Shown here: positions 185-12,551 of the stretch, in pieces
Numbering within the stretch: position 1 is the first letter of the stretch
How the letters are laid out: every line of letters starts with the position of its first letter
Origin: a virus
Lineage: Duplodnaviria > Heunggongvirae > Uroviricota > Caudoviricetes
Strand: one strand, 5' to 3'
IMG/VR virus record: IMGVR_UViG_2703719355_000002
Location: 1-12,551 of that record
DNA length: 12,551 bases
The notes under the pieces: model-generated
Told to the model about the DNA's origin: nothing
Seen by the model: the letters and a program-made list of their open reading frames with translations, nothing else
The model's database searches: none
Program-made: the position numbers and the translations under genes

Positions 185-365
185 TGCCATTCAATCTGTC
201 CTCGCGCTCTTTGCGCTTGTAGTACCAGTTGATGCCAAATGTGCCGACAGTACAAAGAATACCAATGATGACAGCCCAGTCATTCAGGGAGAGAATGCCA
301 CCCATCGCAGTCAGTCCTCCGAAGCTGTAACTGAACCATTCTCTGATTTTGTCCATACGGTACAT
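162..365 (-). CDS. Holin with dual-start motif (MYRMDK: Met1 and Met4 separated by Arg), likely pinholin partner of the SAR endolysin
   Basis: 67 aa with hydrophobic segments ([28 protein letters not shown]) and a charged C-terminal tail ([11 protein letters not shown]); sits immediately upstream of and overlapping the endolysin, downstream of the Q-like gene. Resembles lambdoid S-type holins (S21/EssD style) by architecture. Confidence 0.8.
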
Positions 366-776
366 GCTCTACCCCTTCATTGAGGGGATTTGCTCTATTT
401 ATTAGGAATAAGGTCGATTACTGATAGAACAAATCCAGGCTACTGTGTTTAGTAATCAGATTTGTTCGTGACCGATATGCACGGGCAAAACGGCAGGAGG
501 TTGTTAGCGCAGCCTCTTGCCACCTGCTTTCACGAAGGTCATGTGTAGAAGGCCGCAGCGTAACTATCACTGATGAATTCAGGATAGCCAGTGGCTACGG
601 CTCAGTTTGGGTTGTGCTGTTGCTGGGCGGCGATGACGCCTGTACGCATTTGGTGATCCGGTTCTGCTTCCGGCATTCGCTTAATTCAGCACAACGGAAA
701 GAGCACTTATGGCTCGCATCGCGGGAAAAAGCCCACGGTAGAGAGTCGAACTCTACAAATGCTCTTACCTGTTGTG

Positions 777-809
777 CAAACAAAAAAGCCCCGACGTTTA
801 TGCCGAGGC
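777..809 (-). terminator. Rho-independent terminator on the minus strand (tR'-like, ends a short late-leader transcript)
   Basis: Minus strand reads GCCUCGGC-AUAAAC-GUCGGGGC (8-bp stem with two G.U pairs) followed by UUUUUUGUUUG. Located about 160 bp downstream of the Q-like stop and about 400 bp upstream of the holin, like lambda tR'. Confidence 0.6.
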
Positions 810-915
810 TCTTACCTAATCTAGCCAGTATGTCGACCCTAAATATTATCGGCAACCGGGGAAATCAGGATTTCAATTTCGCTGCTCAGTTCGCTTTTGC
901 TCCGAGCATATACGA

Positions 916-944
916 AAAATACCACTTTCATTTCTCGGAAGCAA
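916..944 (-). promoter_or_regulatory. Candidate late promoter PR'-like (-35 TTGCTT at 944..939, 17-bp spacer, -10 TATTTT at 921..916)
   Basis: Hexamers read by eye on the minus strand between the Q-like stop (968) and the terminator at 777..809; position matches lambda PR'/qut. No experimental or computational scoring done. Confidence 0.3.
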
Positions 945-967
945 CGCATTTACAAAATTATTTCAGT

Positions 968-1582
968 TCAGGCCGCTATCAATGGAAATTCTTTCTCCAA
1001 TTCTCGTTTCATTGCATAAAACATTTCTGACTCCAGCACTTTCTCACACCACACCACTCGCTTACGACAATATTGAATATCAGCACCTGTTATATAAGAA
1101 ATCATCCTGGCTATATCTTGCGTGCAATTGCGATTGCAATATCGCTTAATAGCTACATCGCGGACGGGGCTTTCACGGTGAAAAGTCTTGACCATCACAC
1201 GTTCAACGAAAGCCGCATCATCTGATTCTTTGGCGAGAGTGATGATGTGGCTAAACGATGATTGAGGAATGACCAGTTCGCGAGCTTTCTTGTATAGCAC
1301 ATCTCCGCGCAGCCCATCTTCTTCGTACAGGCGCATGACGACAGACTCTATCTGCTTAGCCTTGTCATCGCTCCACTGACTGCGAATCATCAGACGACCG
1401 ATAACGTTAATTGCACCACCTGGAGAGCAATCTCCGGCATTAACCTTGCCCCATACCTGTAACATGTAATGAACCCATGCTTTCTGGCTAGAGTTGATGG
1501 TTTTCTTCGGGTGTCTCCATACGCGGCGAAAGTGCGCGTCATTAATGAAGTTAACCATGCTGAATACTGGAGTTAACCGCAT
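968..1582 (-). CDS. Putative late-gene antiterminator Q-like protein (204 aa from the ATG at 1582..1580)
   Basis: ORF-track ORF 968..1612; I place the start at internal Met11 (ATG 1582..1580) because it has a GGGAGG RBS 5 nt upstream and a TGATG overlap with the preceding small ORF stop. Assigned as Q by position (after rusA/nin genes, before late leader, terminator and lysis genes). I do not recognise the sequence as lambda Q or DLP12 QuuD, so the functional call is positional. Confidence 0.5.
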   Translation of the reverse strand: MRLTPVFSMVNFINDAHFRRVWRHPKKTINSSQKAWVHYMLQVWGKVNAGDCSPGGAINVIGRLMIRSQWSDDKAKQIESVVMRLYEEDGLRGDVLYKKARELVIPQSSFSHIITLAKESDDAAFVERVMVKTFHRESPVRDVAIKRYCNRNCTQDIARMISYITGADIQYCRKRVVWCEKVLESEMFYAMKRELEKEFPLIAA

Positions 1583-1725
1583 CAGACCTCCCATCCTTTG
1601 CAATGACACCACACTTCAAACATTCGTTTCACAACCTCACGGCAGTAGAAACCGCCAGTATCGCGGGTAAGATCGTAGCGATTGCCATAACGCTGGCGCA
1701 TATATCGTTCGAATGCTTTGTTCAT
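1582..1725 (-). CDS. Small hypothetical protein, 47 aa (MNKAFERYMRQRYGNRYDLTRDTGGFYCREVVKRMFEVWCHCKGWEV), possible Cys/His metal-binding
   Basis: Hand-translated; ATG 1725..1723 overlaps the rusA stop as ATGA and its TGA overlaps the Q-like ATG (TGATG). Fills the rusA-Q gap exactly; position corresponds to ylcG in DLP12. Below the ORF-track length cutoff. Confidence 0.5.
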   Translation of the reverse strand: MNKAFERYMRQRYGNRYDLTRDTGGFYCREVVKRMFEVWCHCKGWEV

Positions 1726-2084
1726 ACGTTCTCCAGTTCGGTGATTTTTATTCCAAGCCTTCCGCCTGGTACTTTCACACCACGAATTACGCGAATGTCA
1801 TCGAATTGCTCGTCGTCTTCCGCAAATCCGGCGTGGATAAGGGAGTCGAGTAAACCTTTCAGGATGTTATCGAGGTCGCGGCGGCGGGAGTCTGGAACGT
1901 CTGCGATGACTTTGATGCGGAGTCGTGATTTTGTGAAAATATCTAACTTGAGTTGGTGGATGATTTGCTGAACGTCTTTTCGGTATTTCTGGCCTTTATC
2001 GCTGATGTAGTATTGGCTTCCCCGTCTTCGCCAGTAGGTATTCAACGACGGCGGGTATGGAAGCACAAACTGATATTCGTTCAT
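1722..2084 (-). CDS. rusA: Holliday-junction resolvase RusA (crossover junction endodeoxyribonuclease)
   Basis: 120 aa; PPS.N.YY...., PD.RRRDLDN and GGRL motifs align with my recollection of E. coli RusA (MNTYSITLPWPPSNNRYY...PDRRRRDLDNLQKA...KGGRLELTITE). ATGA overlap with the upstream ybcO-like gene. Confidence 0.9.
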   Translation of the reverse strand: MNEYQFVLPYPPSLNTYWRRRGSQYYISDKGQKYRKDVQQIIHQLKLDIFTKSRLRIKVIADVPDSRRRDLDNILKGLLDSLIHAGFAEDDEQFDDIRVIRGVKVPGGRLGIKITELENV

Positions 2085-2371
2085 GACTTAATCTTCCCCT
2101 CCTTCAGCAGTATCGCCTGCGTCCTGATCACGCCTTCGAGGTGGTAAAGTCTGGCGTCTTTGTTGTCGAGAATCCTTGTGCGTCGGTCGATCTCCGCGTG
2201 GCAGTCACTACAAGCCCATGCGCCGATCAGGTCGTCAGGCTTCATCCCCGTTCCACAAATTCCAGCCATCCGGTAATGTGCCAGAACTGTAGTTTCAGGA
2301 TTGCCATTGCATACGCCGTAAATACGTACCTGGCATTCTCTGCCGCGCGCTTCTTTGCGTAGGTTAGCCAT
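2081..2371 (-). CDS. ybcO: YbcO-like DUF1364 protein (putative zinc-binding nuclease of nin regions)
   Basis: 96 aa; MANLRKEARGRECQVRIYGVCNGNPETTVLAHYR...CSDCHAEIDRRT matches my recollection of DLP12 YbcO (MADLRKAARGRECQVRIPGVCNGNPETSVLAH...CSACHDEIDRRT). GAGGGAAGG RBS; ATGGCTAA overlap with the upstream ORF stop. Confidence 0.8.
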   Translation of the reverse strand: MANLRKEARGRECQVRIYGVCNGNPETTVLAHYRMAGICGTGMKPDDLIGAWACSDCHAEIDRRTRILDNKDARLYHLEGVIRTQAILLKEGKIKS

Positions 2372-2576
2372 TTACCTTCCCTCGCAATTGAAGAATTGAC
2401 TGAAGGTCTTTTTTAATAAATATGCGAGTGCGAATTGAGCAGTAGTTTTCCTTCATTCTGGCGTAGTAATAGTCCTTTCTTTGCTTAAGTTTGTTGGCAT
2501 CCGCTGTCATCCAGTCTTTTACAGCAAACTTAATTAGCCAGCGGTGGCAGAGATACCATTTCAGGTAATCACTCAT
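2364..2576 (-). CDS. Hypothetical nin-region protein, 70 aa
   Basis: ORF in the same co-directional chain, start overlaps the ninF stop (ATGAGTGA). No family recognised. Confidence 0.45.
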   Translation of the reverse strand: MSDYLKWYLCHRWLIKFAVKDWMTADANKLKQRKDYYYARMKENYCSIRTRIFIKKDLQSILQLRGKVNG

Positions 2577-2739
2577 CGTCTTCTTCCTCGTACATTGAGC
2601 TATTCGGATCGCTCATCAGTTCTGCGCAGCAGTGCTCACACACGTGAACTTCCAGCACATGCAGCTTCTGACCGCAGTTAGCGCACGTTAAAGCTCGCTC
2701 GACGCTTTCTTGTTCGTAACTTCGATTTGGGTCAATCAC
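2569..2739 (-). CDS. ninF: NinF-like protein (start placed at GTG 2739..2737; alternative ATG at 2781 would give 70 aa)
   Basis: C-terminal [38 protein letters not shown]...EEEDD matches my recollection of lambda NinF. The GTG start has a GAGGA RBS 7 nt upstream and a GTGA overlap with the ninE stop; the ATG at 2781 would overlap ninE by 46 nt. Confidence 0.6.
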
Positions 2740-2918
2740 CTTGTATTCCTCGCACGATGTCTTAGCCACCGGATATCCCACAGGTGAGCCGTGTAGTTGA
2801 AGGTTTTTACGTCAGATTCTTTCGGGATTGGCTTGCGTTTATTTCTGTAGCGTTTCGTTGGAAGGTATTTGCAGTTTTCGCAGATTATGTCGGTGATACT
2901 TCGTCGCTGTCGCCTCAT
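2736..2918 (-). CDS. ninE: NinE-like protein (60 aa from internal ATG 2918..2916)
   Basis: [60 protein letters not shown] matches my recollection of lambda NinE almost residue for residue. ATGA overlap with the dam stop. The longer ORF-track version (start 3008) lies inside dam and is rejected. Confidence 0.75.
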
Positions 2919-3445
2919 GCCGCCCTCCTGACGCCATGCCCGATTGCCATCAATGCCGCTTTGGATACGGTAGTAAACATCCGTCGAGGACTGATGAACG
3001 GTCGCCAAATCAGCAGCATGGAGCCTTTGCTGTTTCCCTTCTTCTCCAGCCCTGTCGATGGTTCGATAAAATTAATCCGTCCATCAGTGATGATGCGAAC
3101 TTCGTCGACACTCTCCAGAGCCTTGCTGAACCATCCGACTGACATATCCTCTGGCACAAGCATCACTACCGTCTGTCGCTGTTGTATGCACTGCTCAGCG
3201 GTTTTTTCCACCCACGGCCTGATATTGCTGTACGGTGGGTTATTCCAGATTGCACCGTGGCTTATCCACTCAGAATTGAGCGCGTCGTCGACCTCAGTTA
3301 GCCAGTGAGCGCACAGAGCGTTTTTGTCGCTCGCAGCTGAATCCAGCCAGAATCCAAACTCAATATCCAGTGCATCAAAAAGCCAAAGCGGCGTTTGCCA
3401 GCAGTCTCTAACTTCTTTTGGTGTTTCTGATTTATGCTTAATCAT
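2915..3445 (-). CDS. Phage DNA N6-adenine methyltransferase (phage Dam family)
   Basis: 176 aa with the NPPY catalytic motif ([10 protein letters not shown]) and the N-terminal [12 protein letters not shown]...FGF..DSAAS signature typical of phage Dam-type MTases in nin regions. GAGGG RBS; ATGA overlap with the HNH gene stop. Confidence 0.85.
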
Positions 3446-3969
3446 TCAACCCTCGCATATTGTCCGTGATATTTGTTGATAGCCTCACTGGCAACCAAAC
3501 CAGCAAGCTCAAGATCTTCATAGAACCCAAAATGCAACCGGCCAAAATCTGTGCGCACTTGAACGGCCCATTTATTTTTTTGCTTGTTCCATAAAACATT
3601 TTTTATTCCAGAACGGCTATTGCACTTAGTTTTCTGATTTCGGCTGTTTGCTATCCGGCTTGCCTCCCTAAGATTTTTTGGGGAATTGTCCAGCCTGTTT
3701 CCGTTAATATGGTCAATATTTTTCAATGGCATTCTTTTGTTGTGCAGCGCAAAAACAACTACGTGAACAAACATCTGAATGCCTGCAAAACACACCTGTC
3801 TATACCCAGATCCATTTATCGATGTTTTAATTTCATCTCCGGCCCGGTGGCTGTGGTTGGGGTGTTTTAGCGAGTCCTTTTTGTATCTGACTGTATCTCC
3901 GTCTAAATACAGATAATCCTCAATAAGCCGATACCTATCTGACGCTGGCGTATTTGATTTGATAGTCAT
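3442..3969 (-). CDS. HNH homing endonuclease (HNH plus AP2-like DNA-binding C-terminus), 175 aa from ATG 3969..3967
   Basis: His-Asn-His motif region HVVVFALHNKRMPLKNIDHINGNRLDNSPKNLREASRIANSRN; C-terminal KNVLWNKQKNKWAVQV...HFGFYEDLELA resembles AP2-domain tails of phage HNH endonucleases. ATGA overlap with the preceding HNH gene; GGGGAGA RBS. Confidence 0.8.
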   Translation of the reverse strand: MTIKSNTPASDRYRLIEDYLYLDGDTVRYKKDSLKHPNHSHRAGDEIKTSINGSGYRQVCFAGIQMFVHVVVFALHNKRMPLKNIDHINGNRLDNSPKNLREASRIANSRNQKTKCNSRSGIKNVLWNKQKNKWAVQVRTDFGRLHFGFYEDLELAGLVASEAINKYHGQYARVE

Positions 3970-4568
3970 GCAGCACTGTCTCCCCATCTCGCTTTCATTG
4001 TTTCATTTGCAAATCGCCAGAATCTTCCTTTGTGATATGAGCTTTCGCCATTACAGCAACGACTAATTGACGAACTATCAAATCCTTCTCTGACAGCATC
4101 CATAGCTGCTTCATAATAAACCTCCTCCCCAGTTTTCATGTCAGTAGAAATAACGGCTTTACTGGCAGGGTGATCACCACTAAATTTACCTAGCGATATA
4201 GGTATTCTTCCATTTTGTTTATATCCGTGCTTTGAGTTTTCAGAATGAGATACCCATTCAAGGTTTTCAGCCCTATTGTCATCTCTTTGCCCATTTTTGT
4301 GATTAACTACCAAGCCATCACAGAACCCTGTACAGAATGCTTTCGCAACTATCCTGTGGGCGCTGTATTTCTTACCGTATACCTTTATTTGAAGATATCC
4401 TGTCGACTTGCACTTGAATGGTTTTACGCTAGTGCCATTAATTATTTTCTTATATGGCCTCTGTCTGGTTGATGTTACTGTAATTTCCCTCGCAATAGAC
4501 CTGAAATTTCCTTTATTGCTAACCTGATAAAATGGAATTCCTTCGATATCTACCCAAACCTCAATCAT
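3966..4568 (-). CDS. HNH homing endonuclease (NUMOD4-like N-terminus plus HNH), 200 aa
   Basis: N-terminal EVWVDIEGIPFYQVSNKGNFRS (NUMOD4-like), HRIVAKAF and VNHKNGQRDDNRAENLEWVSHSEN (HNH motif). GGAGGAATT RBS; start overlaps the ninB stop. Confidence 0.8.
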   Translation of the reverse strand: MIEVWVDIEGIPFYQVSNKGNFRSIAREITVTSTRQRPYKKIINGTSVKPFKCKSTGYLQIKVYGKKYSAHRIVAKAFCTGFCDGLVVNHKNGQRDDNRAENLEWVSHSENSKHGYKQNGRIPISLGKFSGDHPASKAVISTDMKTGEEVYYEAAMDAVREGFDSSSISRCCNGESSYHKGRFWRFANETMKARWGDSAA

Positions 4569-4977
4569 AATTCCTCCATTCGCTAAGATGAATTGAGTTC
4601 ATGGCACAATATGCTTCTATGTAGTCCATTATTTCGGATATTTTTTTTACAGATAGAGTCGCCGTACTCTCTCTGATGTTTATTAGCTCACCTTCTAACC
4701 CTGATATAATCTCAGGGTGCTGGTTGGTTGCAATCTGCCAACCAGAAACGAATAACCCCTTCCAAAACTCAATATTTCTTGCTTTTCCATGATATGTAGC
4801 CTTCTTACTTATTTCAGATAGCATCGCGTGAAGGCGTGCATTTTGCCGAATGCTGCGGTTGCGTTCCTGAATGGTTACTACGATTGGTTTGGTTGGGTCT
4901 GGAAGGATTTGCTGTACTGCGTGAATAGCGTTTTGCTGATGTGCCGGAGATCGAATTTCAAAGGTTAGCTTTTTCAT
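4561..4977 (-). CDS. ninB: NinB (Orf-family recombination mediator), 138 aa from ATG 4977..4975
   Basis: MKKLTFEIRSPAHQQNAIHAVQQILPDPTKPIVVTIQERNRS matches my recollection of the lambda NinB N-terminus; the C-terminal half diverges but keeps a similar pattern. GGGAGAGGGAAG RBS. The ORF-track start at 4995 is judged too far upstream. Confidence 0.85.
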   Translation of the reverse strand: MKKLTFEIRSPAHQQNAIHAVQQILPDPTKPIVVTIQERNRSIRQNARLHAMLSEISKKATYHGKARNIEFWKGLFVSGWQIATNQHPEIISGLEGELINIRESTATLSVKKISEIMDYIEAYCAMNSIHLSEWRNYD

Positions 4978-5054
4978 GACTTCCCTCTCCCCCAAATAAA
5001 AAGGCCTGCGATTACCAGCAGGCCTGTTACAAGCTCAGTGATGTAGATGGTCAT
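4974..5054 (-). CDS. Candidate 26-aa hydrophobic micro-protein (MTIYITELVTGLLVIAGLFIWGRGKS)
   Basis: Hand-translated; ATG overlaps the upstream gene stop (ATGA) and its TGA overlaps the ninB ATG (ATGA), so it fills the intergenic gap exactly. Single predicted TM segment. The same DNA also folds as a hairpin followed by a T-run on the minus strand, so it could instead be a terminator. Confidence 0.3.
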   Translation of the reverse strand: MTIYITELVTGLLVIAGLFIWGRGKS

Positions 5055-5320
5055 TGCTTCATCTCCCTTTCCATTTCATCAATGTCAACGTCATCAGGAA
5101 GATGGGAGCAATACGCCGCTATACCATGATGATTTATCTCATACCCTTTGAACGTTACCATCTGGTGCGTAATCTCAACTTCGTTCAGGAATCCGTCATC
5201 GCATAACTGCCTGGCTATTTTCGATTTGGTCTGGATTATTGGTAGTGCCTGTTCTTTCAAAGCGCATGATATTTGTGCATCCCATGCCTTTTCGAGAATG
5301 GCTAATTGTTTTTTATTCAT
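5051..5320 (-). CDS. Hypothetical protein, 89 aa (position of lambda ren, not recognisably Ren)
   Basis: GGAG RBS 6 nt upstream; start ATG abuts the primase-helicase stop (TAA at 5321..5323). Acidic C-terminus (DDVDIDEMEREMKQ). No family recognised. Confidence 0.6.
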   Translation of the reverse strand: MNKKQLAILEKAWDAQISCALKEQALPIIQTKSKIARQLCDDGFLNEVEITHQMVTFKGYEINHHGIAAYCSHLPDDVDIDEMEREMKQ

Positions 5321-7201
5321 TTAATACTCCGTCACGTTTTCCTGTCGCCACGCCTCGTCATATTCCGATTTCGGCATATTGGCGATGTAGCTATATGGCG
5401 ATCCTGATTCAAGTTGCAGGAACTGGTGCGATTGCTCGTCAAGGAACAACGGGACACCACCTTCCCAACCTTCGCCGTTACGTTGTTTTTCAAGCATCAA
5501 AACAGATGCCGGAGATGCCAGTAGCTGTTCGTCCTTCTCTGACATCTTTTCACCACTCTGAACTCTCTGTAACGCTCTCTCGCGAGCCTTGTTACGCCAG
5601 ATGATGAAAAGGTTGTCTGTCAGGTCTGTTATCGCTCCAGAGCCTTTTACGTCCATTTTCCCGGTTGGTTTTTCTTCGCTGTCTCCTTTTCGCGAGTGAG
5701 TAACGAGAATGACGTGGGAGTTTGTTTTGTTTTTGAAGTCGCAAATCGAGTCAACAAAAGCCTTCTGCCCGTTATAGTCATCGTCGCCTATGCCACATTT
5801 CATCAGGCTGTCGATGATGAATAACTGGATCCCGTATCGGCGGCGAGCGTAGTCGAATATTTCGATCAGCCTGTCGGCTTTCGCCGTTCCGGTCAGGCCA
5901 AACACCCAAAGTCTTTCGTCATAAAATTTAAATGCAGAGTCAATTTCCAGCACTGGCGGCATCTTGCAGCACGTCGCCTGACGGGTAAGGCGCTTAAGGA
6001 GAATACCAGGCTTCAGCTCAAGTGACGCGATGCACGTCTTCACTCCCTGACGCATTGCCTCAAGTGCCATATGCCCGACAACCTCCGTTTTTCCGTGACC
6101 GTTCACACCATTGACCAGCGTCAACTCTGCCTCACGGAACTGGAATTTATCTGCCAGAGATTCCCACGGTGGATTAAACAGATACTGCTGCTTGCCGTAG
6201 AAAGCGTTGATAGTGTCCTGGTAAAACTCTCGCGCACTGTAGAGTTCTTCAGGATCGAAGTAGGATGCCGTGCCGATGTACTGCCAGATTTCATCCTCGG
6301 TAACACCGTTCATCAGGCATTCGTTGATGTCTTTGTACGGCAGAGTAACAAGACGGCAACGATGTTCACCGAGTCGGCTTGCGATTTCCCTTGCGGCTTC
6401 ACGACCAACATCATCAACGTCCATCGAGATGAATATTTCCTCAAACCTGTCGAGGTTGTGGTACTCAAACTCAATCCACTGTTGCTTAGCGCCTTTCCCT
6501 CCACCAAACGGCACGGATAACGCCGAGATGCCGTATTGCGCATAGCTCATACAATCAATTTCGCCTTCGCAAAGTACAACCGCCCTCACGCCAGCGTCCA
6601 GAGCCTGCCATCCGAACAGACAAGGTTCGCAATCACCTTCTGCCATAATGACTTTCTTCCCGTCCGGGCGCTCAGTGCTGATTCGCTTGACCTGCAACAA
6701 CTCACCATCGCGTTTGTACGGAAGCACCAGTGCATCAAGTTCTCGTTCTCCATTCCACACCTTGCCGCTGACAACCTCGTAGCGCTTTACGACTTCTGGC
6801 GATATGCCACGCGATTGCAGGTACTCAAGATGGGATTCTGTTCTGGTAACGTAGCGGGCGATTTTCTTGCGGTCAGGTCTGGAGAATTTCTTCTCACGTT
6901 TGGCATCGAAATGGTGATCGTCATCCTTGATACCGAGAAATGCTTTCGCTTCCTGCATAGCCTGATGCAGGTTAATTCCACGACATGCCATCCACAAATC
7001 AAGCATGTCACCGCCGTCTCCCTCAGCGAAATCAGCCCATTTTTTCTTGCCGCTAAGGTTGACCTTAAGGCTGTTTCCCTTGTCACCGTTGACGTTACCG
7101 GCAACCCACTCATGCCCCTCTTTCTTGCCGTTTGGCAACAGGTGCGGAGCCACCCTGTCAACCTGCGCCCAAAGCAGGTCGCTGAGTTCACTTGGCCTCA
7201 T
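5321..7201 (-). CDS. Bifunctional DNA primase-helicase (Toprim primase domain plus DnaB/RecA-like helicase domain)
   Basis: 626 aa. Toprim signature: VVLCEGEIDCMSYAQYG ... ISMDVDDVGREAA. Helicase: Walker A GVNGHGKT, Walker B-like LFIIDSLMKC, ILVTHSRKG. GAGGGA RBS. Sits in the lambda P position downstream of the initiator. Confidence 0.9.
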   Translation of the reverse strand: MRPSELSDLLWAQVDRVAPHLLPNGKKEGHEWVAGNVNGDKGNSLKVNLSGKKKWADFAEGDGGDMLDLWMACRGINLHQAMQEAKAFLGIKDDDHHFDAKREKKFSRPDRKKIARYVTRTESHLEYLQSRGISPEVVKRYEVVSGKVWNGERELDALVLPYKRDGELLQVKRISTERPDGKKVIMAEGDCEPCLFGWQALDAGVRAVVLCEGEIDCMSYAQYGISALSVPFGGGKGAKQQWIEFEYHNLDRFEEIFISMDVDDVGREAAREIASRLGEHRCRLVTLPYKDINECLMNGVTEDEIWQYIGTASYFDPEELYSAREFYQDTINAFYGKQQYLFNPPWESLADKFQFREAELTLVNGVNGHGKTEVVGHMALEAMRQGVKTCIASLELKPGILLKRLTRQATCCKMPPVLEIDSAFKFYDERLWVFGLTGTAKADRLIEIFDYARRRYGIQLFIIDSLMKCGIGDDDYNGQKAFVDSICDFKNKTNSHVILVTHSRKGDSEEKPTGKMDVKGSGAITDLTDNLFIIWRNKARERALQRVQSGEKMSEKDEQLLASPASVLMLEKQRNGEGWEGGVPLFLDEQSHQFLQLESGSPYSYIANMPKSEYDEAWRQENVTEY

Positions 7202-7305
7202 GATTCCCTCAGATTGAGATTTTTAAACCAGAAATCGACAAACGAAATACTTAACCAGCCGTGGTTATAACCAGCGACCAGTAGCGATTTGATTTTTGAT
7301 TTCAT
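7198..7305 (-). CDS. Candidate 35-aa micro-ORF (MKSKIKSLLVAGYNHGWLSISFVDFWFKNLNLRES)
   Basis: Hand-translated; AGGTGA RBS 4 nt upstream, stop TGA overlaps the primase-helicase ATG (ATGA). Fills the initiator-primase gap. Confidence 0.3.
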   Translation of the reverse strand: MKSKIKSLLVAGYNHGWLSISFVDFWFKNLNLRES

Positions 7306-7308
7306 GGT

Positions 7309-8085
7309 TCACCTGTCGAAAAACACGTAGCCAGTTTTCGATACGGTGATTGCGGATGATGGTTTGGATTGTGGTTGAATAGTTTCTGGCTTCTCGTCGT
7401 TCCAGCGCTGACCGTTCAGGTAGCTCGATGGTAACAACCTGTCGAATCCGAACTGCTTACCATTCCTGCATGCGATGTCTTCTGCCAGCATCGTGGCAAA
7501 CTCGCTTGCCGTACCCCTGGTAGTTTTACGCCATTCCCTGAACTGTGTTCTGAATGCTGAAGCTGCGTTTTTCTTCCCGGCTTTCCGCATGCCTGCACAC
7601 CAGAATATTTCCTCGAACGCCTTGTCGGTTTCTTCGTGACGGTCAGGAGTTTTTTCACACTCTGTTCGGACATGTTCGAACATAATGTTTTTAGGTTCAT
7701 TGACTGGTTCAAAAGAGTGATAGGTTCTGGGGGCAGCTCCTGCCCCACCCCCTAGGGCAGCTCCTGCCCCACCCCGGGCAGCTCCTGCCCCACCTGATTC
7801 TGGTTGGATTTGTTGTGCATTATCCAGCGTCAGATAAAAAACGTTTGACTGGTTAAGCTCTCCTTTTCTTCTGAGTTCCCTTTTCAAAAGCCCCATCTCT
7901 TCCAGTGCCCTAATGTGATTTTTTACTGTCGATCTGCTCACCTCACACTGGTCAGCGACATGTTGATATGAAGGCCAGCATTCGCCATTATCATTGGCGT
8001 TATCGGCAAGTTTAATCAGAACCAGTTTTCTCAGTGGGTTGCCAACCTTTATATTCATGGCCTTAGCCATAAGATTCATGCTCAT
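7309..8085 (-). CDS. Replication initiator (O-like): N-terminal HTH DNA-binding domain, Gly/Ala linker, C-terminal DnaT-like domain
   Basis: 258 aa. N-terminal LRKLVLIKLADNANDNGECWPSYQHVADQCEVSRSTVKNHIRALEEMGLL is a typical phage replication-protein HTH; central GGAGAARGGAGAALGGGAGAAP linker; the C-terminal domain resembles DnaT-like replication proteins (lower confidence). GGAGAA RBS. Located between cII and the primase-helicase. Confidence 0.8.
   Translation of the reverse strand: MSMNLMAKAMNIKVGNPLRKLVLIKLADNANDNGECWPSYQHVADQCEVSRSTVKNHIRALEEMGLLKRELRRKGELNQSNVFYLTLDNAQQIQPESGGAGAARGGAGAALGGGAGAAPRTYHSFEPVNEPKNIMFEHVRTECEKTPDRHEETDKAFEEIFWCAGMRKAGKKNAASAFRTQFREWRKTTRGTASEFATMLAEDIACRNGKQFGFDRLLPSSYLNGQRWNDEKPETIQPQSKPSSAITVSKTGYVFFDR
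7729..7794. repeat. Three tandem copies of the palindrome GGGCAG-CTC-CTGCCC (period 24/21 bp) inside the initiator gene: candidate origin iterons
   Basis: Seen directly: ggggcagctcctgcccc at 7730..7746, gggcagctcctgccc at 7755..7769 and 7776..7790. They encode the in-frame Gly/Ala linker. Analogous to ori-lambda iterons inside the O gene. Confidence 0.6.
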
Positions 8086-8225
8086 TTTGACTTCTCCGAA
8101 GTTTTGTACCTGTTAAGTATTTCTCTCAGTGGCACAGCTATTGCTGGATTAACCCCTTGATAAAACTGGTCACGTAGCACATCTTTTCGGTGATTAACGC
8201 GTTTATTTTCCTGCGTTTTTCGCAT
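8082..8225 (-). CDS. Small basic hypothetical protein, 47 aa (MRKTQENKRVNHRKDVLRDQFYQGVNPAIAVPLREILNRYKTSEKSK)
   Basis: Internal start of ORF-track ORF 8082..8393; ATG 8225..8223 has a GAGGT RBS (GAGGTAATTATATG) and lies just after the cII stop; its stop overlaps the initiator ATG (ATGA). The upstream part of the track ORF overlaps cII in another frame and is rejected. Confidence 0.4.
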   Translation of the reverse strand: MRKTQENKRVNHRKDVLRDQFYQGVNPAIAVPLREILNRYKTSEKSK

Positions 8226-8247
8226 ATAATTACCTCGCTGGATGTTG

Positions 8248-8547
8248 TTAAAATTCCATTTGTATTTGATCAGAACGCTCGGTCTTGCACACCGGGCGTT
8301 TTTTCTTTGTGATTTCATCAAGCGCATACTTAAAAGCCCTGCTAATCGGACTGATGTCTGATGCCATTCCGAAAGCACACAAGACTGAAGCAATAAATCT
8401 CCAGTCCGTTCTGCTTATCTTCGATTCATGACAGCCAATCATCTTTGCCAGACCGCGCTGGGTAAGCGTTGACAGGTTGATGAGTAAATCTGTTTCTGCG
8501 CGATCAACGTCGCGCTGTGATAGTTTGCTGTAACTTGTTTGTTCCAT
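8248..8547 (-). CDS. cII: CII-like transcriptional activator (lysogeny establishment)
   Basis: 99 aa; HTH region plus a C-terminus KKKRPVCKTERSDQIQMEF that matches my recollection of lambda CII (...KKRPAATERSEQIQMEF). Position between cro and the replication genes. Confidence 0.85.
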   Translation of the reverse strand: MEQTSYSKLSQRDVDRAETDLLINLSTLTQRGLAKMIGCHESKISRTDWRFIASVLCAFGMASDISPISRAFKYALDEITKKKRPVCKTERSDQIQMEF

Positions 8548-8557
8548 TTCTTATGAT
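8525..8557 (+). promoter_or_regulatory. PRE-like CII-dependent promoter: TTGC-N6-TTGT (8525..8538) with -10 TATGAT (8552..8557)
   Basis: Plus-strand TTGCtgtaacTTGT lies inside cII codons 4-8 on the opposite strand, the same arrangement as lambda PRE (TTGC-N6-TTGC in cII codons 3-7); TATGAT sits 13 nt further on, matching lambda spacing. Would drive antisense-cro/cI transcription. Confidence 0.5.
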
Positions 8558-8599
8558 TTCCAATAGTGAATATTACGCATCTGTTGATGCGTTTTTTGT

Positions 8600-8637
8600 G
8601 GGGACGAATCATCCCCGACCTGATTGTTTAAAGAGCG
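8600..8637 (-). promoter_or_regulatory. nutR-like site: boxA CGCTCTTTAAACA (8637..8625, minus) and boxB hairpin GGGGAUGAUUCGUCCCC (8616..8600, minus)
   Basis: boxA closely matches the boxA consensus as I recall it (CGCTCTTA / rrn GCTCTTTAACAA). The boxB hairpin (5-bp stem GGGGA/UCCCC, 7-nt loop) is identical to the one at 10819..10835 on the plus strand. Located just downstream of cro, as in lambda. Confidence 0.6.
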
Positions 8638-8644
8638 GTGTTAC

Positions 8645-8869
8645 TTATGCTGCCTGATTCGGTTTTGGAAACAGGTGTGGCAAATCGGGGCGAATTTCAT
8701 AAGCCTTGATCTGCCCTCCAGTGGCGTTAACGATGGCGGTAACTTTCTCTGGAGAGACCAACCCGCCTTTCAGCCATTTGTGTACTGCTGGCTGCGTTAC
8801 ACCACACTTGTCGGCAAGGCGCTTTTGGCTACCGACAATTTTCAAGGCTCGTTGAATTACTAAATTCAT
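8645..8869 (-). CDS. cro: Cro-like repressor (HTH), 74 aa from ATG 8869..8867
   Basis: HTH QKRLADKCGVTQPAVHKWLKG; divergent from cI across the operator region; AGAGGT RBS 6 nt upstream of the chosen ATG. The ORF-track start at 8890 has no RBS and would place the start inside the promoter. Confidence 0.8.
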   Translation of the reverse strand: MNLVIQRALKIVGSQKRLADKCGVTQPAVHKWLKGGLVSPEKVTAIVNATGGQIKAYEIRPDLPHLFPKPNQAA

Positions 8870-8902
8870 GAGCATACCTCTTGTGGTCATTACTTATAAC
8901 CA

Positions 8903-8931
8903 AAGATAACTCAAGTTATAAAAAATAGCAA
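8903..8931 (-). promoter_or_regulatory. PR-like promoter (-35 TTGCTA at 8931..8926, 17-bp spacer, -10 TATCTT at 8908..8903)
   Basis: Read on the minus strand; the -10 and spacer are overlapped by the operator at 8906..8919 and the -35 abuts the operator at 8931..8944. Predicted start about 25 nt upstream of the cro ATG. Confidence 0.5.
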
Positions 8932-8968
8932 TAACCTTTGTTATTTTACTTTGGATAACCGTAGTTAT
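8906..8968. promoter_or_regulatory. OR operator array: three 14-bp palindromes ATAAC-N4-GTTAT at 8906..8919, 8931..8944 and 8955..8968
   Basis: ATAACTCAAGTTAT, ATAACCTTTGTTAT, ATAACCGTAGTTAT; centres spaced 25 and 24 bp, in the cro-cI intergenic region. The same consensus recurs at the proposed OL (10710..10748). Confidence 0.65.
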
Positions 8969-8971
8969 AGA
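8966..8971 (+). promoter_or_regulatory. Candidate PRM -10 (TATAGA), which would make cI mRNA leaderless
   Basis: TATAGA lies 9 nt upstream of the cI ATG at 8981, inside/adjacent to the third operator; no good -35, as expected for an activated PRM. Weak by-eye call. Confidence 0.25.
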
Positions 8972-8980
8972 TTTGTGGGT

Positions 8981-9688
8981 ATGAAAACATTCGCAGAAAG
9001 ACTAAATGCAGCCATGAGCTCAGCAGGTGTGTCGCAATCACAGCTTGCTGACATGGTTGGAATATCTCAGCCAGCCATACAGAAGATGTCATCCGGTAAA
9101 ACAAACGGATCTCGCAAGATGGTTGAATTAGCCAATGCTTTAAAAGTACGCCCTGAATGGCTTAGCTCTGGTATTGGTGAAATGAGGGATGGTACACATG
9201 AAGAACCATCCAATGTCCGTGAATCATCTTTAAAAGCTGTGGTATGGGAAGATATTAAAAGAAACGATGACGAGTTTGTCGCGTTGCCTCTTCTTAACGT
9301 TTCGCTTTCAGCTGGAAGCGGTAGCTGCGAGCTAGAGGAATCATCAGAGTTCTCTTTGGTTTTCAGAAAGTACTATCTGAAAAAGATGGGGGTATCTGAA
9401 AGATCAGCCAAGCTAGTTAGGGTTGTAGGGCAAAGCATGGAACCAACGCTTCACGACGGAGATGTTGTTGGCGTTAACACACAAGATACCACAATCAGAG
9501 ATGGTAAAACCTACGCTATTTGCCAGTCTGATTTGTTACGAGTAAAAACATTAATCGCCACCCCAACATCGGTGATAATCAGATCAATAAATCGCGAAGA
9601 GTACCCAGATGAAGTAATGGATAGAGATGAATTTAATAAAACCGTAAGGATTATTGGCAGAGTATTCTGGTCGTCTCATAGTTGGTAA
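8981..9688 (+). CDS. cI: CI-type prophage repressor (N-terminal HTH, C-terminal LexA/S24 autopeptidase domain), 235 aa from ATG 8981
   Basis: HTH QSQLADMVGISQPAIQKMSSG; Ala-Gly cleavage site in SLSAGSG; catalytic Ser in GQSMEPT and Lys in LRVKTLI. The TTG start at 8951 proposed by the ORF track overlaps the third operator, so ATG 8981 is preferred. Confidence 0.9.
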   Translation: MKTFAERLNAAMSSAGVSQSQLADMVGISQPAIQKMSSGKTNGSRKMVELANALKVRPEWLSSGIGEMRDGTHEEPSNVRESSLKAVVWEDIKRNDDEFVALPLLNVSLSAGSGSCELEESSEFSLVFRKYYLKKMGVSERSAKLVRVVGQSMEPTLHDGDVVGVNTQDTTIRDGKTYAICQSDLLRVKTLIATPTSVIIRSINREEYPDEVMDRDEFNKTVRIIGRVFWSSHSW

Positions 9689-9723
9689 CCAGTGGCCTGA
9701 AGAGACGTTTGGATAACACGTAA

Positions 9724-10161
9724 ATGATTAAAGAACGTATTTCTTATATCATTCCGATTGCGATGGATGAAGGCAACCCAGTAACTCCGGTTCTTATCTA
9801 TGAAATGGATAAAGACTCCCATGAAGTGGATCTATCATTTGGCGCTTTTTTTATCGGCCTTAAGGCTACAAAAAAATATTCCATAGGCATTGAGGTTTTC
9901 AATGCTCAAGAAATACCGATACCAATTGACACAAAACTGTACTCCAACCATAAGTTTTTTACGGTAGCAGAAGCCAACGATGGAGAAACCATCGTATCAA
10001 CTTCTATGAGAATTAACTTCCCAAGGGTGAAAATTATCAAGCCTGGGATATTCGAAGTTAGAGCATCACTGGTTAATCCTGATAAAGGCGAAGTAATTGA
10101 TGTAAAAAGTTCGTTTTTTGACGTGAAGATAACAGGATCAGTTCGCGATGAGTTTAGATAA
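9724..10161 (+). CDS. Hypothetical protein, 145 aa, first gene of the cI-linked cargo cassette (rexA position)
   Basis: ORF begins 36 bp after the cI stop, same strand; AT-rich; no motif I recognise. Its 3' end overlaps the next ORF by 14 bp. Confidence 0.6.
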   Translation: MIKERISYIIPIAMDEGNPVTPVLIYEMDKDSHEVDLSFGAFFIGLKATKKYSIGIEVFNAQEIPIPIDTKLYSNHKFFTVAEANDGETIVSTSMRINFPRVKIIKPGIFEVRASLVNPDKGEVIDVKSSFFDVKITGSVRDEFR

Positions 10162-10519
10162 CAAGGTTGCTCAGCTTCGTCCAAATCAAAACATATCTCG
10201 CCCAATTGGACACTATTCAACTGATGATGCATACTCACGGCATGGTGGAGGAAACGGCGGAGGTAACATGCTTGAGGCTAGAGTTGCAAAGCTAGAGTCT
10301 GATGTTGAATACATCAAGCGCGATATCGCTGAGGTAAAGTCAGATATAAAATCTGTAGATTCTCGTCTGTCAGGTATTGAGACAAGCATTAACTCAGCAA
10401 AAACCACCATCAAGGCATCTGCGGTCGTTGTCAGTTTCGTGTTCGCATTTTGCGCCTACATTTTTGGAAGTTATGTTTCCAAAATCCTTGATGCCTTAAA
10501 CGGACTCGTTCTTAAGTAA
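10148..10519 (+). CDS. Hypothetical membrane-anchored coiled-coil protein, 123 aa (possibly 83 aa from Met41), second gene of the cassette (rexB position)
   Basis: Gly-rich N-terminus (SRHGGGNGGGN), heptad-like coiled coil (LEARVAKLESDVEYIKRDIAEVKSDIKSVDSRLSGIETSIN), single C-terminal TM helix (ASAVVVSFVFAFCAYIFGSYV). Architecture resembles XhlA-like small membrane proteins. The alternative start at 10268 has a GGAGGT RBS. Confidence 0.6.
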   Translation: MSLDNKVAQLRPNQNISRPIGHYSTDDAYSRHGGGNGGGNMLEARVAKLESDVEYIKRDIAEVKSDIKSVDSRLSGIETSINSAKTTIKASAVVVSFVFAFCAYIFGSYVSKILDALNGLVLK

Positions 10520-10524
10520 CACAC

Positions 10525-10553
10525 AACCCGGCCACCGAGCCGGGTTTTCTTTG
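10525..10553 (+). terminator. Rho-independent terminator ending the cI/cargo transcript
   Basis: AACCCGGC-caccga-GCCGGGTT (8-bp stem) followed by TTTTCTTT, 6 bp after the cassette stop codon. Confidence 0.75.
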
Positions 10554-10709
10554 CCTCACGTTCGCCCTCCCATATTTAATAGCCGCAAATGTGGTAAACC
10601 GCGAACCAACTCACCAGCAATACCCCCTCCAACTACAGACCAATCTGCAACATTTACAAAAATAAAATACCTTTGCTATCCATCACTTATAACTTATTTA
10701 CCACAAAAT

Positions 10710-10751
10710 ATAAACTAAGTTATTGACCATACCCATAACCTAAGTTATCTT
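10710..10751 (+). promoter_or_regulatory. OL/PL-like: operators ATAAACTAAGTTAT (10710..10723) and ATAACCTAAGTTAT (10735..10748), with -35 TTGACC (10723..10728) and -10 TATCTT (10746..10751)
   Basis: Same palindrome consensus and 25-bp spacing as OR; same -10 hexamer as PR; 17-bp spacer; rightward orientation toward nutL and the N-like ORF. Confidence 0.55.
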
Positions 10752-10796
10752 TAAGCCATCAGCAGGACGCAGGAAGCCAAACGGAACAGATTGGCA

Positions 10797-10835
10797 GGCT
10801 CTTTAACATTGATGGAATGGGGATGATTCGTCCCC
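10797..10835 (+). promoter_or_regulatory. nutL-like site: boxA GGCTCTTTAACATT (10797..10810) and boxB GGGGATGATTCGTCCCC (10819..10835)
   Basis: boxB is identical to the nutR copy and boxA is near-identical; both are oriented in the direction of early transcription, about 45 nt downstream of the predicted PL start. Confidence 0.6.
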
Positions 10836-10990
10836 ACCAAAGAGAGGTTGGCTTTGGGATTTGATGAATGCGCAGGTCGATGCGCTACCACTTAGCGGTG
10901 AGCACCTGCATTTTGGGCAGGATGGATAGCCGCAATAAGGGGATCGACACATGACATCAAATCACCAAAGTCAATCATCGGAGGTATCCA

Positions 10991-11197
10991 GTGAAAGCAA
11001 GAGGGATTCGCAAACTCGAACGCGCTCGTAAGCACAAAGAGGCGACAGCAAAACGTAAAAATATTGACCGTGTTTCAATGGTGGTTTCGCTAGCAGGAGC
11101 GAATAGGAAGAAGGTTGAATGTGGTTCGTGCTGCCTGCCAAACGTAGCTCTTTACGCGGCAGGCTACCGGAAATCAAAACAACTGACAGCGAGGTAA
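10991..11197 (+). CDS. Candidate N-like antitermination protein, 68 aa, GTG start, Arg/Lys-rich N-terminus
   Basis: First ORF downstream of PL/nutL; GAGGT RBS 5 nt before the GTG; N-terminus MKARGIRKLERARKHKEATAKRKN resembles arginine-rich motifs of N proteins. Shorter than lambda N (107 aa) and without recognisable sequence identity, so the call is positional. Confidence 0.45.
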   Translation: MKARGIRKLERARKHKEATAKRKNIDRVSMVVSLAGANRKKVECGSCCLPNVALYAAGYRKSKQLTAR

Positions 11198-11199
11198 TT

Positions 11200-11493
11200 A
11201 TGGATATTTCATGTATTGAACAATTACTAATTGAGAAAACGAAAGAAATGCTTGATGTATTGGACATAAAAATATCTGAGTTAAAAGATACACCCGCGAC
11301 ACAACTTATTCTCGAACGTAGTCGAAATAAATTCTTAGAGTTAAGCCCTGACGTTCAAAATATAGCATCTAAACTGCTGGCTACATTGATTGAGAGGAAT
11401 GCATTGTTATCGATGTCATCAGATGAACGAAAAAAACTGGCGAACGAAGATGCTGCAACCATCCGCCAGGCATTCGAAATTTTGTTTTCTTAA
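11200..11493 (+). CDS. Hypothetical protein, 97 aa (start at internal ATG 11200 of track ORF 11119..11493)
   Basis: GAGGT RBS 4 nt upstream; ATG lies 2 nt after the N-like stop. Predicted helical; no family recognised. Confidence 0.55.
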   Translation: MDISCIEQLLIEKTKEMLDVLDIKISELKDTPATQLILERSRNKFLELSPDVQNIASKLLATLIERNALLSMSSDERKKLANEDAATIRQAFEILFS

Positions 11494-11658
11494 TTACTTA
11501 CTGTTTATTCTGATAATCTCATCAAGAATTTTTTCATAAACAACTGTGATTGGCTTTCCGTCAATGCCAGGGGCAAGATTACCGGCTCTGATAAGCTCAA
11601 CAATAATCTGTTGAGCGGCTTCGTGTGGGTTGGTTTTAGGATTAACAATATCTGTCAT
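11494..11658 (-). CDS. Small hypothetical protein, 54 aa (MTDIVNPKTNPHEAAQQIIVELIRAGNLAPGIDGKPITVVYEKILDEIIRINSK), antisense to the PL operon
   Basis: Internal start of track ORF 11494..11814, with AAGAAGGG 7 nt upstream; the longer N-terminal extension runs through the direct repeats and looks non-coding. Confidence 0.4.
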   Translation of the reverse strand: MTDIVNPKTNPHEAAQQIIVELIRAGNLAPGIDGKPITVVYEKILDEIIRINSK

Positions 11659-11672
11659 AACAAAGCCCTTCT

Positions 11673-11719
11673 TTTGACTGTGGAAACAACAGTCTACCCA
11701 TTTCCTTTGACTGTGGAAA
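11673..11719. repeat. Direct repeat: two copies of TTTGACTGTGGAAA (11673..11686, 11706..11719), 33 bp apart
   Basis: Seen directly; located immediately upstream of the minus-strand 54-aa ORF start, so a candidate regulator binding site or promoter element. Confidence 0.5.
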
Positions 11720-11869
11720 GTGAAGGAACCACCGAGCCTGATGTGGTTAAAAGACAGGCATACTAATAAACACTGCACTGTGTATTCATTCCAACGAGTG
11801 AATACACGGAGCAATGTCGCTCGTAACTAAACAGGAGCCGACTTGTTCTGATTATTGGAAATCTTCTTT

Positions 11870-11897
11870 GCCCTCCAGTGTGAGGGCGATTTTTTTC
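11870..11897 (+). terminator. Rho-independent terminator within the PL operon (tL-like)
   Basis: GCCCTC-cagtgt-GAGGGC followed by GATTTTTTTCTG on the plus strand; 18 bp upstream of the next ORF. The reverse complement has no T-run, so it is unidirectional. Confidence 0.65.
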
Positions 11898-11914
11898 TGT
11901 GAGGATATGAACAG

Positions 11915-12283
11915 ATGTCAAACATCAAAAAATACATCATTGATTACGACTGGAAAGCATCAATAGAAATTGAAATCGACCATGACTTAATGACAGAGGA
12001 AAAACTTCACCAGATTAATAATTTCTGGTCAGACTCTGAATACCGACTCAATAAACACGGCTCTGTATTAAATGCTGTATTAATCATGCTGGCGCAACAT
12101 GCTCTGCTTATAGCAATTTCAAGCGACTTAAATGCATATGGTGTTGTGTGTGAGTTCGACTGGAATGATGGAAATGGTCAGGAAGGATGGCCTCCAATGG
12201 ATGGTAGCGAAGGAATAAGAATTACCGATATCGATACATCAGGAATATTTGATCCAGATGATATGACTATCAAAGCCGCCTGA
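11915..12283 (+). CDS. Ea10-like protein (by position upstream of cIII), 122 aa, acidic C-terminal half
   Basis: ORF-track ORF; occupies the lambda ea10 position. The name is positional and from memory of the lambda gene order; I cannot verify the sequence. Confidence 0.55.
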   Translation: MSNIKKYIIDYDWKASIEIEIDHDLMTEEKLHQINNFWSDSEYRLNKHGSVLNAVLIMLAQHALLIAISSDLNAYGVVCEFDWNDGNGQEGWPPMDGSEGIRITDIDTSGIFDPDDMTIKAA

Positions 12284-12355
12284 GCGCGGCGTTACCGCAT
12301 ACCAATAACGCTTCACTCGAGGCGTTTTTCGTTATGTATAAATAAGGAGCACACC

Positions 12356-12496
12356 ATGCAATATGCCATTGCAGGGTGGCCTGTTGCTGGCTGCCCTTCC
12401 GAATCTTTACTTGAGCGAATCACACGTAAATTACGTGACGGATGGAAACGCCTTATCGACATACTTAATCAGCCAGGAGTTCCAAAAAATGGATAA
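12356..12496 (+). CDS. cIII: CIII (FtsH/HflB inhibitor that stabilises CII), 46 aa
   Basis: Hand-translated: MQYAIAGWPVAGCPSESLLERITRKLRDGWKRLIDILNQPGVPKNG, matching my recollection of lambda CIII residues 1-46 including the conserved amphipathic helix; AAGGAG RBS 7 nt upstream. Stops 8 codons short of lambda's 54 aa. Confidence 0.8.
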   Translation: MQYAIAGWPVAGCPSESLLERITRKLRDGWKRLIDILNQPGVPKNG

Positions 12497-12551
12497 AACA
12501 CTTATGGCTATCCAGACTAAATTCACTATCGCCACTTTTATTGGCGATGAA
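12489..12551 (+). CDS. kil: Kil-like host-killing/cell-division inhibitor, 5' part only (runs off the right edge)
   Basis: MDKTLMAIQTKFTIATFIGDE matches my recollection of the lambda Kil N-terminus (MDQTLMAIQTKFTIATFIGDE...). AGGAG RBS 9 nt upstream; ATG overlaps the cIII 3' end. Confidence 0.65.
   Translation, partial: MDKTLMAIQTKFTIATFIGDE

Follow-up and report, generated by a model that had tools for sequence, protein, structure and literature searches.

A two-gene cassette of a lambdoid prophage immunity region: a modular family and candidate phage-conflict system

Results

The cassette and its family

The stretch of DNA considered here, called the window in what follows, comprises the 12,551 nucleotides at positions 1 to 12,551 of IMG/VR virus record IMGVR_UViG_2703719355_000002. 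This window spans the early region of a lambdoid prophage, and between its cI-type repressor gene and its OL/PL region lies a cassette of two small genes, which we call gene 1 and gene 2. This cassette is one member of a family built from exchangeable parts around a conserved core, made of a glycine linker and the motif that follows it. From context and architecture, we predict with moderate confidence that it is a two-component phage-conflict, or defence, module, in which a sensor or adaptor works with a membrane effector. More tentatively, the family may form an unrecognised and widespread class of repressor-linked prophage immune modules, whose effector is recombined with unrelated sensors and different anchors.

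An earlier note on this stretch had described two co-directional open reading frames (ORFs) that overlap by 14 base pairs, between the cI stop and an intrinsic terminator and just before OL/PL, and had placed them in the slot where phage lambda carries rexAB. The coordinates are confirmed, and operators, terminator and N gene lie as this slot predicts. The elements of the cassette and its immediate upstream neighbour are the following:

8993..9688, + strand: cI-type repressor gene (HTH_3 and Peptidase_S24; Pfam and PHROG matches)
9689..9723, + strand: terminator-free spacer from the cI stop to gene 1; the part up to 9712 (24 bp) is common to prophages with other cargo
9724-10161, + strand: gene 1, 145 amino acids, phrog_5893
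10148-10519, + strand: gene 2, 123 amino acids, phrog_6136
10148..10243, + strand: gene 2 residues 1-32, variable disordered N-terminal tail (N-tail), co-inherited with the upstream partner gene
10244..10324, + strand: gene 2 residues 33-59, GGGNGGG linker and near-invariant RVAKLESDVEYIKRD motif, within the mosaic joint
10409..10477, + strand: gene 2 residues 88-110, predicted C-terminal transmembrane (TM) helix (Kyte-Doolittle, AlphaFold)
10525..10553, + strand: intrinsic terminator (tIMM-like), common to prophages with other cargo

Two genes under purifying selection

Both ORFs are real genes, and both are under purifying selection. Measured against homologues, the ratio of nonsynonymous to synonymous substitution rates (dN/dS) has a value of 0.10 in gene 1; in gene 2 it amounts to 0.04-0.08 over the C-terminal two-thirds and to about 0.4 over the short N-tail. 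Each gene matches a family of unknown function over its full length: phrog_5893 for gene 1 (positions 1-140 of 140, E 8.5e-65), and phrog_6136 for gene 2 (positions 1-120 of 120, E 6.6e-46). Diversifying selection on gene 1 is not seen at close range, its dN/dS being the 0.10 just given; the diversity arises from module exchange.

The two proteins

The AlphaFold2 model of gene 1, computed from an alignment of 70 sequences, is an eight-stranded all-beta sandwich with a mean predicted local distance difference test score (pLDDT) of 89.8 and a predicted template modelling score (pTM) of 0.84. Its structural neighbours are generic folds of the immunoglobulin or carbohydrate-binding module type only, and a Foldseek search against viral models returns only uncharacterised phage proteins. 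As the earlier note had remarked, the protein has no recognised motif: Pfam, NCBIfam and PADLOC hold no match at threshold, and a profile search of the PDB sequences returns nothing. The protein has neither a signal peptide nor a hydrophobic segment, and no enzyme signature was found in it. Gene 1 thus appears to be a soluble binding module rather than an enzyme.

For gene 2, the expected glycine-rich N-terminal region, coiled coil and single C-terminal TM helix are confirmed by heptad analysis, Kyte-Doolittle hydropathy and AlphaFold taken together. In the AlphaFold monomer, residues 1-40 are disordered and a single helix spans residues 41-122; the GGGNGGG stretch occupies residues 33-39, and the best 19-residue hydrophobic window is 92-110, with a Kyte-Doolittle value of 2.1. 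The heptad a/d residues are L,L,I,V,V,I and V,V,I,I,L,I,I, and the coiled coil has profile matches to Lpp, to designed CC-Tri peptides and to the P22 tail needle gp26. These proteins form trimeric coiled coils and the a/d positions are rich in Ile and Val, which together suggest a trimer-like coiled coil. Otherwise, searches with gene 2 return coiled-coil noise only, whether against PDB sequences by profile, against PADLOC-DB 2.0.0 (E >= 0.007), or against NCBIfam, where no curated name appears beyond such noise. Residues 24-81 match positions 155-211 of the 276-position phrog_3556 (E 3e-17); this match hints at longer relatives, in which a sensor-like domain may be naturally fused to the linker and coiled coil.

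A conserved core with exchangeable partners and anchors

Sequence searches gave 20 clusters for the close relatives of gene 1 and 107 for the relatives of gene 2, all from Enterobacterales where named. A profile search widened the gene-1 set to 72 clusters, and a hidden Markov model (HMM) search of 1.84 billion representatives gave 96 gene-1 clusters at 50% identity, nearly all of them stand-alone proteins of 130-153 amino acids. An IMG/VR scan, followed by a scripted ORF and HMM analysis, yielded 56 distinct pairs; individual loci are designated below by numbers preceded by L. The cassette family is present in Escherichia, Salmonella, Klebsiella, Enterobacter, Yersinia, Serratia, Pectobacterium and Proteus.

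The pairing can be seen from both sides. In divergent contexts of Enterobacter, Klebsiella and Yersinia, a repressor gene is followed by an ORF of about 140 amino acids and then by a gene-2 homologue, and the start and stop codons of gene 2 and its partner overlap or adjoin; these partners are remote homologues of gene 1 (in Klebsiella, 30% identity, E 4e-10). From the gene-1 side, homologues in Klebsiella, Pectobacterium and Serratia directly follow the repressor, and downstream of them comes a protein with a variable N-tail, a glycine linker, a coiled coil and a C-terminal TM helix. Over the 56 pairs, a small ORF is tightly coupled directly upstream of gene 2 in the 55 loci whose contig extends that far. 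The pair nearly always follows a repressor gene: among 54 preceding genes, HTH_3 is found in 35, Peptidase_S24 in 19, Phage_CI_repr in 15, and an Arc/Mnt-like ribbon-helix-helix domain in 5.

The upstream partner is not always the same protein. It matches the gene-1 beta-sandwich profile in 42 of the 56 pairs. A second type, of 112-132 amino acids, is cysteine-rich and zinc-ribbon-like, with two CxxC pairs (L039, L054-56, L076, L092, L095); a third is a protein of about 90 amino acids with a conserved CVDAYSDSFGYSSFG motif (L050, L081, L089, L090). In L050, L081 and L089 the third type is preceded by a short ORF of 78-85 amino acids; the ORF of L050, the only one of the three checked by itself, is Arc-like. 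The ORF upstream in L090 has 98 amino acids and no Pfam match. The partner in L086, of 144 amino acids, is undetected by the gene-1 profile. Six gene-2 variants and four of the alternative partners were compared with Pfam, NCBIfam and PADLOC, and none reaches the threshold of any family. The positions of these partners, each in the coordinates of its own locus, are:

L039:3509-3892, zinc-ribbon-like partner
L054:3541-3939, zinc-ribbon-like partner
L076:3574-3936, zinc-ribbon-like partner
L092:3616-3954, zinc-ribbon-like partner
L095:3601-3942, zinc-ribbon-like partner
L050:3585-3857, partner of about 90 amino acids
L081:3564-3839, partner of about 90 amino acids
L089:3572-3856, partner of about 90 amino acids

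Gene 2 itself varies on both sides of a fixed center. The glycine-rich linker and a heptad start of the type RVAKLE(S/A)D are kept in all 55 analysable pairs (RVEKLE in phage epsilon34), and the full RVAKLESDVEYIKRD motif is found in gene 2 proteins of the window type and of the Proteus type. The 30 or so residues that precede the linker vary across the family; after the motif come at least five unrelated types of coiled coil and TM anchor, with 0-13 residues following the TM helix.

Comparison of individual loci with the window shows both kinds of exchange. In L001 and L058, gene 1 is 73-74% identical to that of the window and the gene 2 N-tail 81%, but the C-terminal module of gene 2 only 25-30%; conversely, L036, L037 and L046 have a C-terminal module that is 82-89% identical and a gene 1 that is only 23-34% identical. 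DNA homology between loci begins or ends at 10240-10330, over the linker and motif, which identifies this interval as an internal recombination joint.

Proteus is the clear exception to repressor linkage: here the pair belongs to a variable island flanked by the tail assembly chaperone and tape-measure genes. One version of this island also carries true RexA (E 1e-87) and RexB (E 2.5e-43), about 800 bp upstream of the pair. The islands occupy the following positions:

L010:2562-5309, Proteus accessory island
L012:789-5309, Proteus accessory island

The version with RexAB also holds two unknown genes, of 177 and 289 amino acids. Another version, which lacks RexAB, contains an S24 repressor-like gene, an ORF6N-domain protein with a weak hit to PADLOC PDC-S05, and unknowns.

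Swappable cargo of the immunity region

The earlier note had called the cassette cargo, and comparison with other prophages bears this out in both directions: the same cassette stands behind unrelated cI genes, and the same cI gene stands before other cargo. Among 5426 complete E. coli genomes, about 16 carry the stretch 9689-10569 at about 98% identity behind unrelated cI alleles; one of them is enteropathogenic E. coli (EPEC) E2348/69 (98.6% identity). The stretch is likewise present in 18 IMG/VR contigs; L002, L003 and L017-L034 carry this cargo with different cI genes. The window as a whole is not found in the 5426 genomes, where the best match covers 69% of it at 98.6% identity. In the opposite direction, the E. 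coli prophage L016 matches the cI of the window at 94% up to position 9712, then holds other cargo (its positions 2835-3341, two hypothetical proteins of 120 and 42 amino acids), and homology returns at 10521, at the terminator. Another E. coli prophage, L015, has a 303-amino-acid P63C-domain protein between the same linkers (its positions 2539-3450). The stretch that follows cI and the terminator are common to prophages with other cargo, and can thus be considered as the left and right linkers of a slot that holds interchangeable cargoes.

The two genes are translationally coupled and the cassette travels as a unit, which can be compared with what is expected of a moron. It is present or absent between conserved neighbours, and it ends with its own terminator, but this terminator is common to other cargoes of the slot. 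Its base composition is 41.3% G+C (37.4% for gene 1 and 42.5% for gene 2), against 45.3% for the whole window. The claim that the cassette is AT-rich holds in comparison with the replication genes, at 49-51%; the difference is modest, however, since cI, at 43%, and the PL-operon genes, at 39.7%, are similarly low, and the compositional argument for foreign cargo is weak. The interval between cI and N is a published hotspot of morons and mosaic diversity, which holds rexAB in lambda and bstA in phage BTP1 (PMC8585504, PMC7067206, citing Degnan et al. 2007).

Layout and transcription of the immunity region

Around the cassette, the following elements are recognised:

8645-8890, - strand: cro
8906-8968: OR operators, three copies of ATAACN4GTTAT between cro and cI
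10710-10748: OL operators, two copies of ATAACN4GTTAT
10723-10751, + strand: site resembling -35 and -10 boxes (PL-like promoter), overlapping the OL operators
10991-11197, + strand: N antiterminator (PF25694, E 2e-16)
12343-12401, + strand: lambda cIII thermoregulator RNA element (Rfam RF01804, 88.5 bits)

The five copies of ATAACN4GTTAT in the window compare with 0.34 expected by chance. The cIII thermoregulator is located at the start of a cIII-like ORF (12356-12496), which confirms the orientation of the PL operon; with operators, N and the cIII element placed in this way, the cassette is inside the immunity region, between cI and OL/PL. The - strand of the window carries, besides cro, a cII homologue, replication genes and nin-region genes. 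The longest ORF for cI opens at TTG 8951, but ATG 8993 is the likelier start because positions 8955-8968 are themselves an operator copy; the PRM transcript may then have a short leader or be leaderless.

No terminator-like site was found on the + strand between cI and gene 1. Downstream of gene 2, the terminator consists of an 8-bp GC-rich stem at 10525-10546 followed by UUUUCUUU, with a folding free energy of -15.4 kcal/mol (z = -2.3). Since PL fires away from the cassette and PR is on the other strand, the cassette can be transcribed only from the cI side, either by read-through from PRM or PRE, or from a promoter of its own; a search for the latter gave one weak candidate, at 9654-9682, with 9 of 12 positions matched. 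From this layout we infer that the cassette is co-transcribed with cI and expressed in the lysogen.

Two other regions of the window drew our attention. On the - strand, two adjacent ORFs of the nin region (3442-4568, 181 and 200 amino acids) are probably homing-endonuclease-like insertions, because the features that they match in near-identical E. coli prophages include NUMOD4-domain proteins. On the + strand, downstream of N, the PL operon holds two ORFs, at 11119-11493 and 11915-12283: the product of one, 124 amino acids long, matches nothing in Pfam, and that of the other belongs to DUF2528 (E 2.6e-46). The interval 11119-12283 is AT-rich, with 39.7% G+C.

Discussion

A predicted sensor and membrane effector

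We base the defence reading on the combination of a conserved membrane module, unrelated soluble partners, linkage to a repressor, presence/absence polymorphism and proximity to RexAB, a pattern that is usual in prophage defence cargo. The shuffling of partners and anchors, together with the RexAB neighbours in Proteus, fits a sensor/effector conflict system.

A possible mechanism is as follows. The cassette would be read through from the cI promoters in the lysogen, with transcription ending at its own terminator. Gene 2 would be tail-anchored in the inner membrane with its bulk in the cytoplasm, and its coiled coil, of about 45 residues, would form a trimer-like stalk extending into the cytoplasm. 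A flexible glycine linker would join this stalk to the N-terminal tail of about 30 residues, on which the cytoplasmic gene 1 protein would dock. Gene 1, as the subunit that confers specificity, would sense a component of the infecting phage; recognition would change the oligomeric state of gene 2, which would compromise the inner membrane and abort the infection. The membrane could be compromised directly, or through cooperation with the holin of the incoming phage; this second route would amount to premature lysis. XhlA-type proteins need a second holin to kill (PMC6316719). We consider such membrane compromise, or abortive infection, a more likely output than a block of genome entry.

Several observations weigh against this scheme. 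Over all pairs, the co-variation between gene 1 and the gene 2 N-tail is weak (Spearman 0.19), and their co-inheritance, which linkage on one side of the recombination joint can explain, does not prove contact. The cassette region contains 7 promoter-like sites, against 5.7 expected in shuffled sequence, a number that neither points to a promoter of its own nor speaks against one. Gene 2 has a single TM helix only, and the XhlA-type proteins of PBSX and SPP1 are non-toxic alone (PMC6316719). Neither protein of the cassette matches any model of PADLOC (2023; PADLOC-DB 2.0.0), and the literature, in a search that did not extend to Brenes & Laub 2025 (PMID 40409266), offers no functional work on the pair later than its first description in 2008.

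No paper of this literature connects the two proteins, their accessions or proteins of the XhlA type with defence against phages, and neither protein sequence is present in the DefensePredictor supplements. The papers on HepS and on the "bully phage" proved to be unrelated to the cassette. The reading as a structural or lysis protein was rejected: the pair has no lysis-cassette context, and its sole tail-region context is the variable accessory island that also holds RexAB.

Comparison with known systems

The closest analogue, by function and by position, is the abortive infection system RexAB of lambda. Both systems occupy the slot between cI and OL/PL, are co-directional with cI and have a terminator at their end; both consist of two genes, for one soluble protein and one membrane protein, with expression expected in the lysogen. 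Membership fails on homology. As had been anticipated, neither protein resembles RexA or RexB: in the Pfam and PADLOC scans, the models for RexA (PF15969 / PDLC02339) and RexB (PF15968 / PDLC02340) give no hit for either of them, whereas the same models do hit the Proteus neighbours of the pair. RexB is a protein with four TM helices and RexA has about 279 amino acids; gene 2, on the other hand, has a coiled coil and one C-terminal TM helix, gene 1 is a beta sandwich of 145 amino acids, and gene order and size differ as well.

True homologues are genes 45 and 44 of Salmonella phage epsilon34, and their counterparts in g341c and NM-3, which have the same slot and the same overlap. Over its whole length, gene 1 shares 74% identity with epsilon34 gp45, and the N-tail of gene 2 shares about 81% with that of gp44; gene 2 matches the homologues of these Salmonella phages over residues 1-65 only, gp44 having a different coiled coil and TM anchor, with a C-terminal module that is 25% identical. 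The epsilon34 genome paper of 2008 already compared these genes by their position after the repressor ("like rexA and rexB") with the lambda pair, and gave them no function (PMC2629481). The word "novel" in the earlier note was thus too strong, the more so as the cI-N interval is a published hotspot (PMC8585504, PMC7067206): the cassette is a known but uncharacterised object in a known hotspot, and it is the modular architecture of its family that appears to be unreported.

A third comparison is with BstA, the abortive infection protein of Salmonella prophage BTP1. Its gene follows cI, is presumably expressed from the repressor promoter and is found in diverse Gram-negative prophages (PMC8585504). 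The architecture downstream of a prophage repressor is the same; no sequence relation between the cassette and BstA was found.

Alternative explanations

The alternative that survives best, though we judge it unlikely, is a role outside defence: lysogenic conversion, or the modulation of host membrane physiology, prophage induction or lysis timing. In the last form, gene 2 could assist a holin as XhlA does, under the control of gene 1. The earlier note had called gene 2 XhlA-like, and this is right as to shape: like XhlA and SPP1 gp24.1 (PF10779), gene 2 is a small protein whose N-terminal part is helical or coiled-coil and whose only TM helix is C-terminal. Some gene-2 homologues are even labeled "hemolysin XhlA family protein" by PGAP, a name that favours this alternative, as does the weak sequence similarity (E 2e-4 for gene 2, 4.8e-5 for the variant P0103). 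XhlA, which belongs to the lysis cassettes of Bacillus phages, beside a two-TM holin and an endolysin, acts at the cytoplasmic membrane and disrupts it with a second holin; such cooperation is known from PBSX and SPP1 lysis (PMC6316719). Moreover, some cI-adjacent genes act on immunity, for example hex of phage 434 (PMC3564112).

Membership in the XhlA family nevertheless fails, both on score and on genomic context. Gene 2 obtains 21.8 bits against a Pfam gathering cutoff of 34.7, and the other variants tested, with 23.9 and 19.7 bits, also stay below it. Unlike XhlA, gene 2 is located in an immunity region and has a glycine linker, a variable N-tail and a dedicated soluble partner. No lysis genes were found beside the pair, either in the window or in the surveyed contexts: a holin, endolysin or spanin is adjacent in 0 of 56, the neighbour being a repressor gene or the Proteus accessory island. 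Coupling of expression to the repressor is the reverse of what late lysis timing would need, and the swapping of partners and anchors would be unusual for a housekeeping function.

Less probable still is superinfection exclusion without cell death, in which the stalk and variable head of the pair would block genome entry or ejection proteins. The predicted anchoring of gene 2 at the inner membrane, where phage DNA enters, agrees with this idea, and so does a position compatible with expression from the prophage. The Proteus location, between the tail assembly chaperone and tape-measure genes, also speaks for it; we take this slot to be the position of the HK97 gp15 exclusion moron. However, almost the entire protein mass is predicted to lie in the cytoplasm, with 0-13 residues after the TM helix, so that a block in the periplasm or at the level of a channel is hard to picture. 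A system of this kind would resemble P22 SieA, T4 Imm or HK97 gp15, and no homology to proteins of these types is found in Pfam, PHROGs or PADLOC.

Finally, that the two ORFs are functionless frames, arisen by chance or decaying in a mosaic junction, is hardly credible: no curated family is matched, the Shine-Dalgarno sequence of gene 1 is weak and the cassette is rare among complete E. coli genomes (about 16 of 5426), but such frames would not show dN/dS values of 0.04-0.10, PHROG matches over their full length, a gene 1 model with a pLDDT of 90, 96 clusters of stand-alone gene-1 homologues and a pairing kept in at least eight genera.

Significance

Taken as a predicted two-component conflict module, the cassette is a good candidate for a virus-versus-virus defence system. 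It is also directly testable, being small (about 0.85 kb) and present in the well-studied strain EPEC E2348/69. Stk maps to the interval between the repressor and PL as well. This interval of lambdoid prophages has already yielded RexAB and BstA (PMC8585504). If the cassette is a defence system, it would add to them a minimal membrane effector, made of one TM helix and a coiled coil. Its modularity in three parts, namely sensor, docking tail with linker, and anchor, would then show how prophage immunity is re-targeted by recombination: a plug-and-play change of the rival phage that a prophage aborts or excludes.

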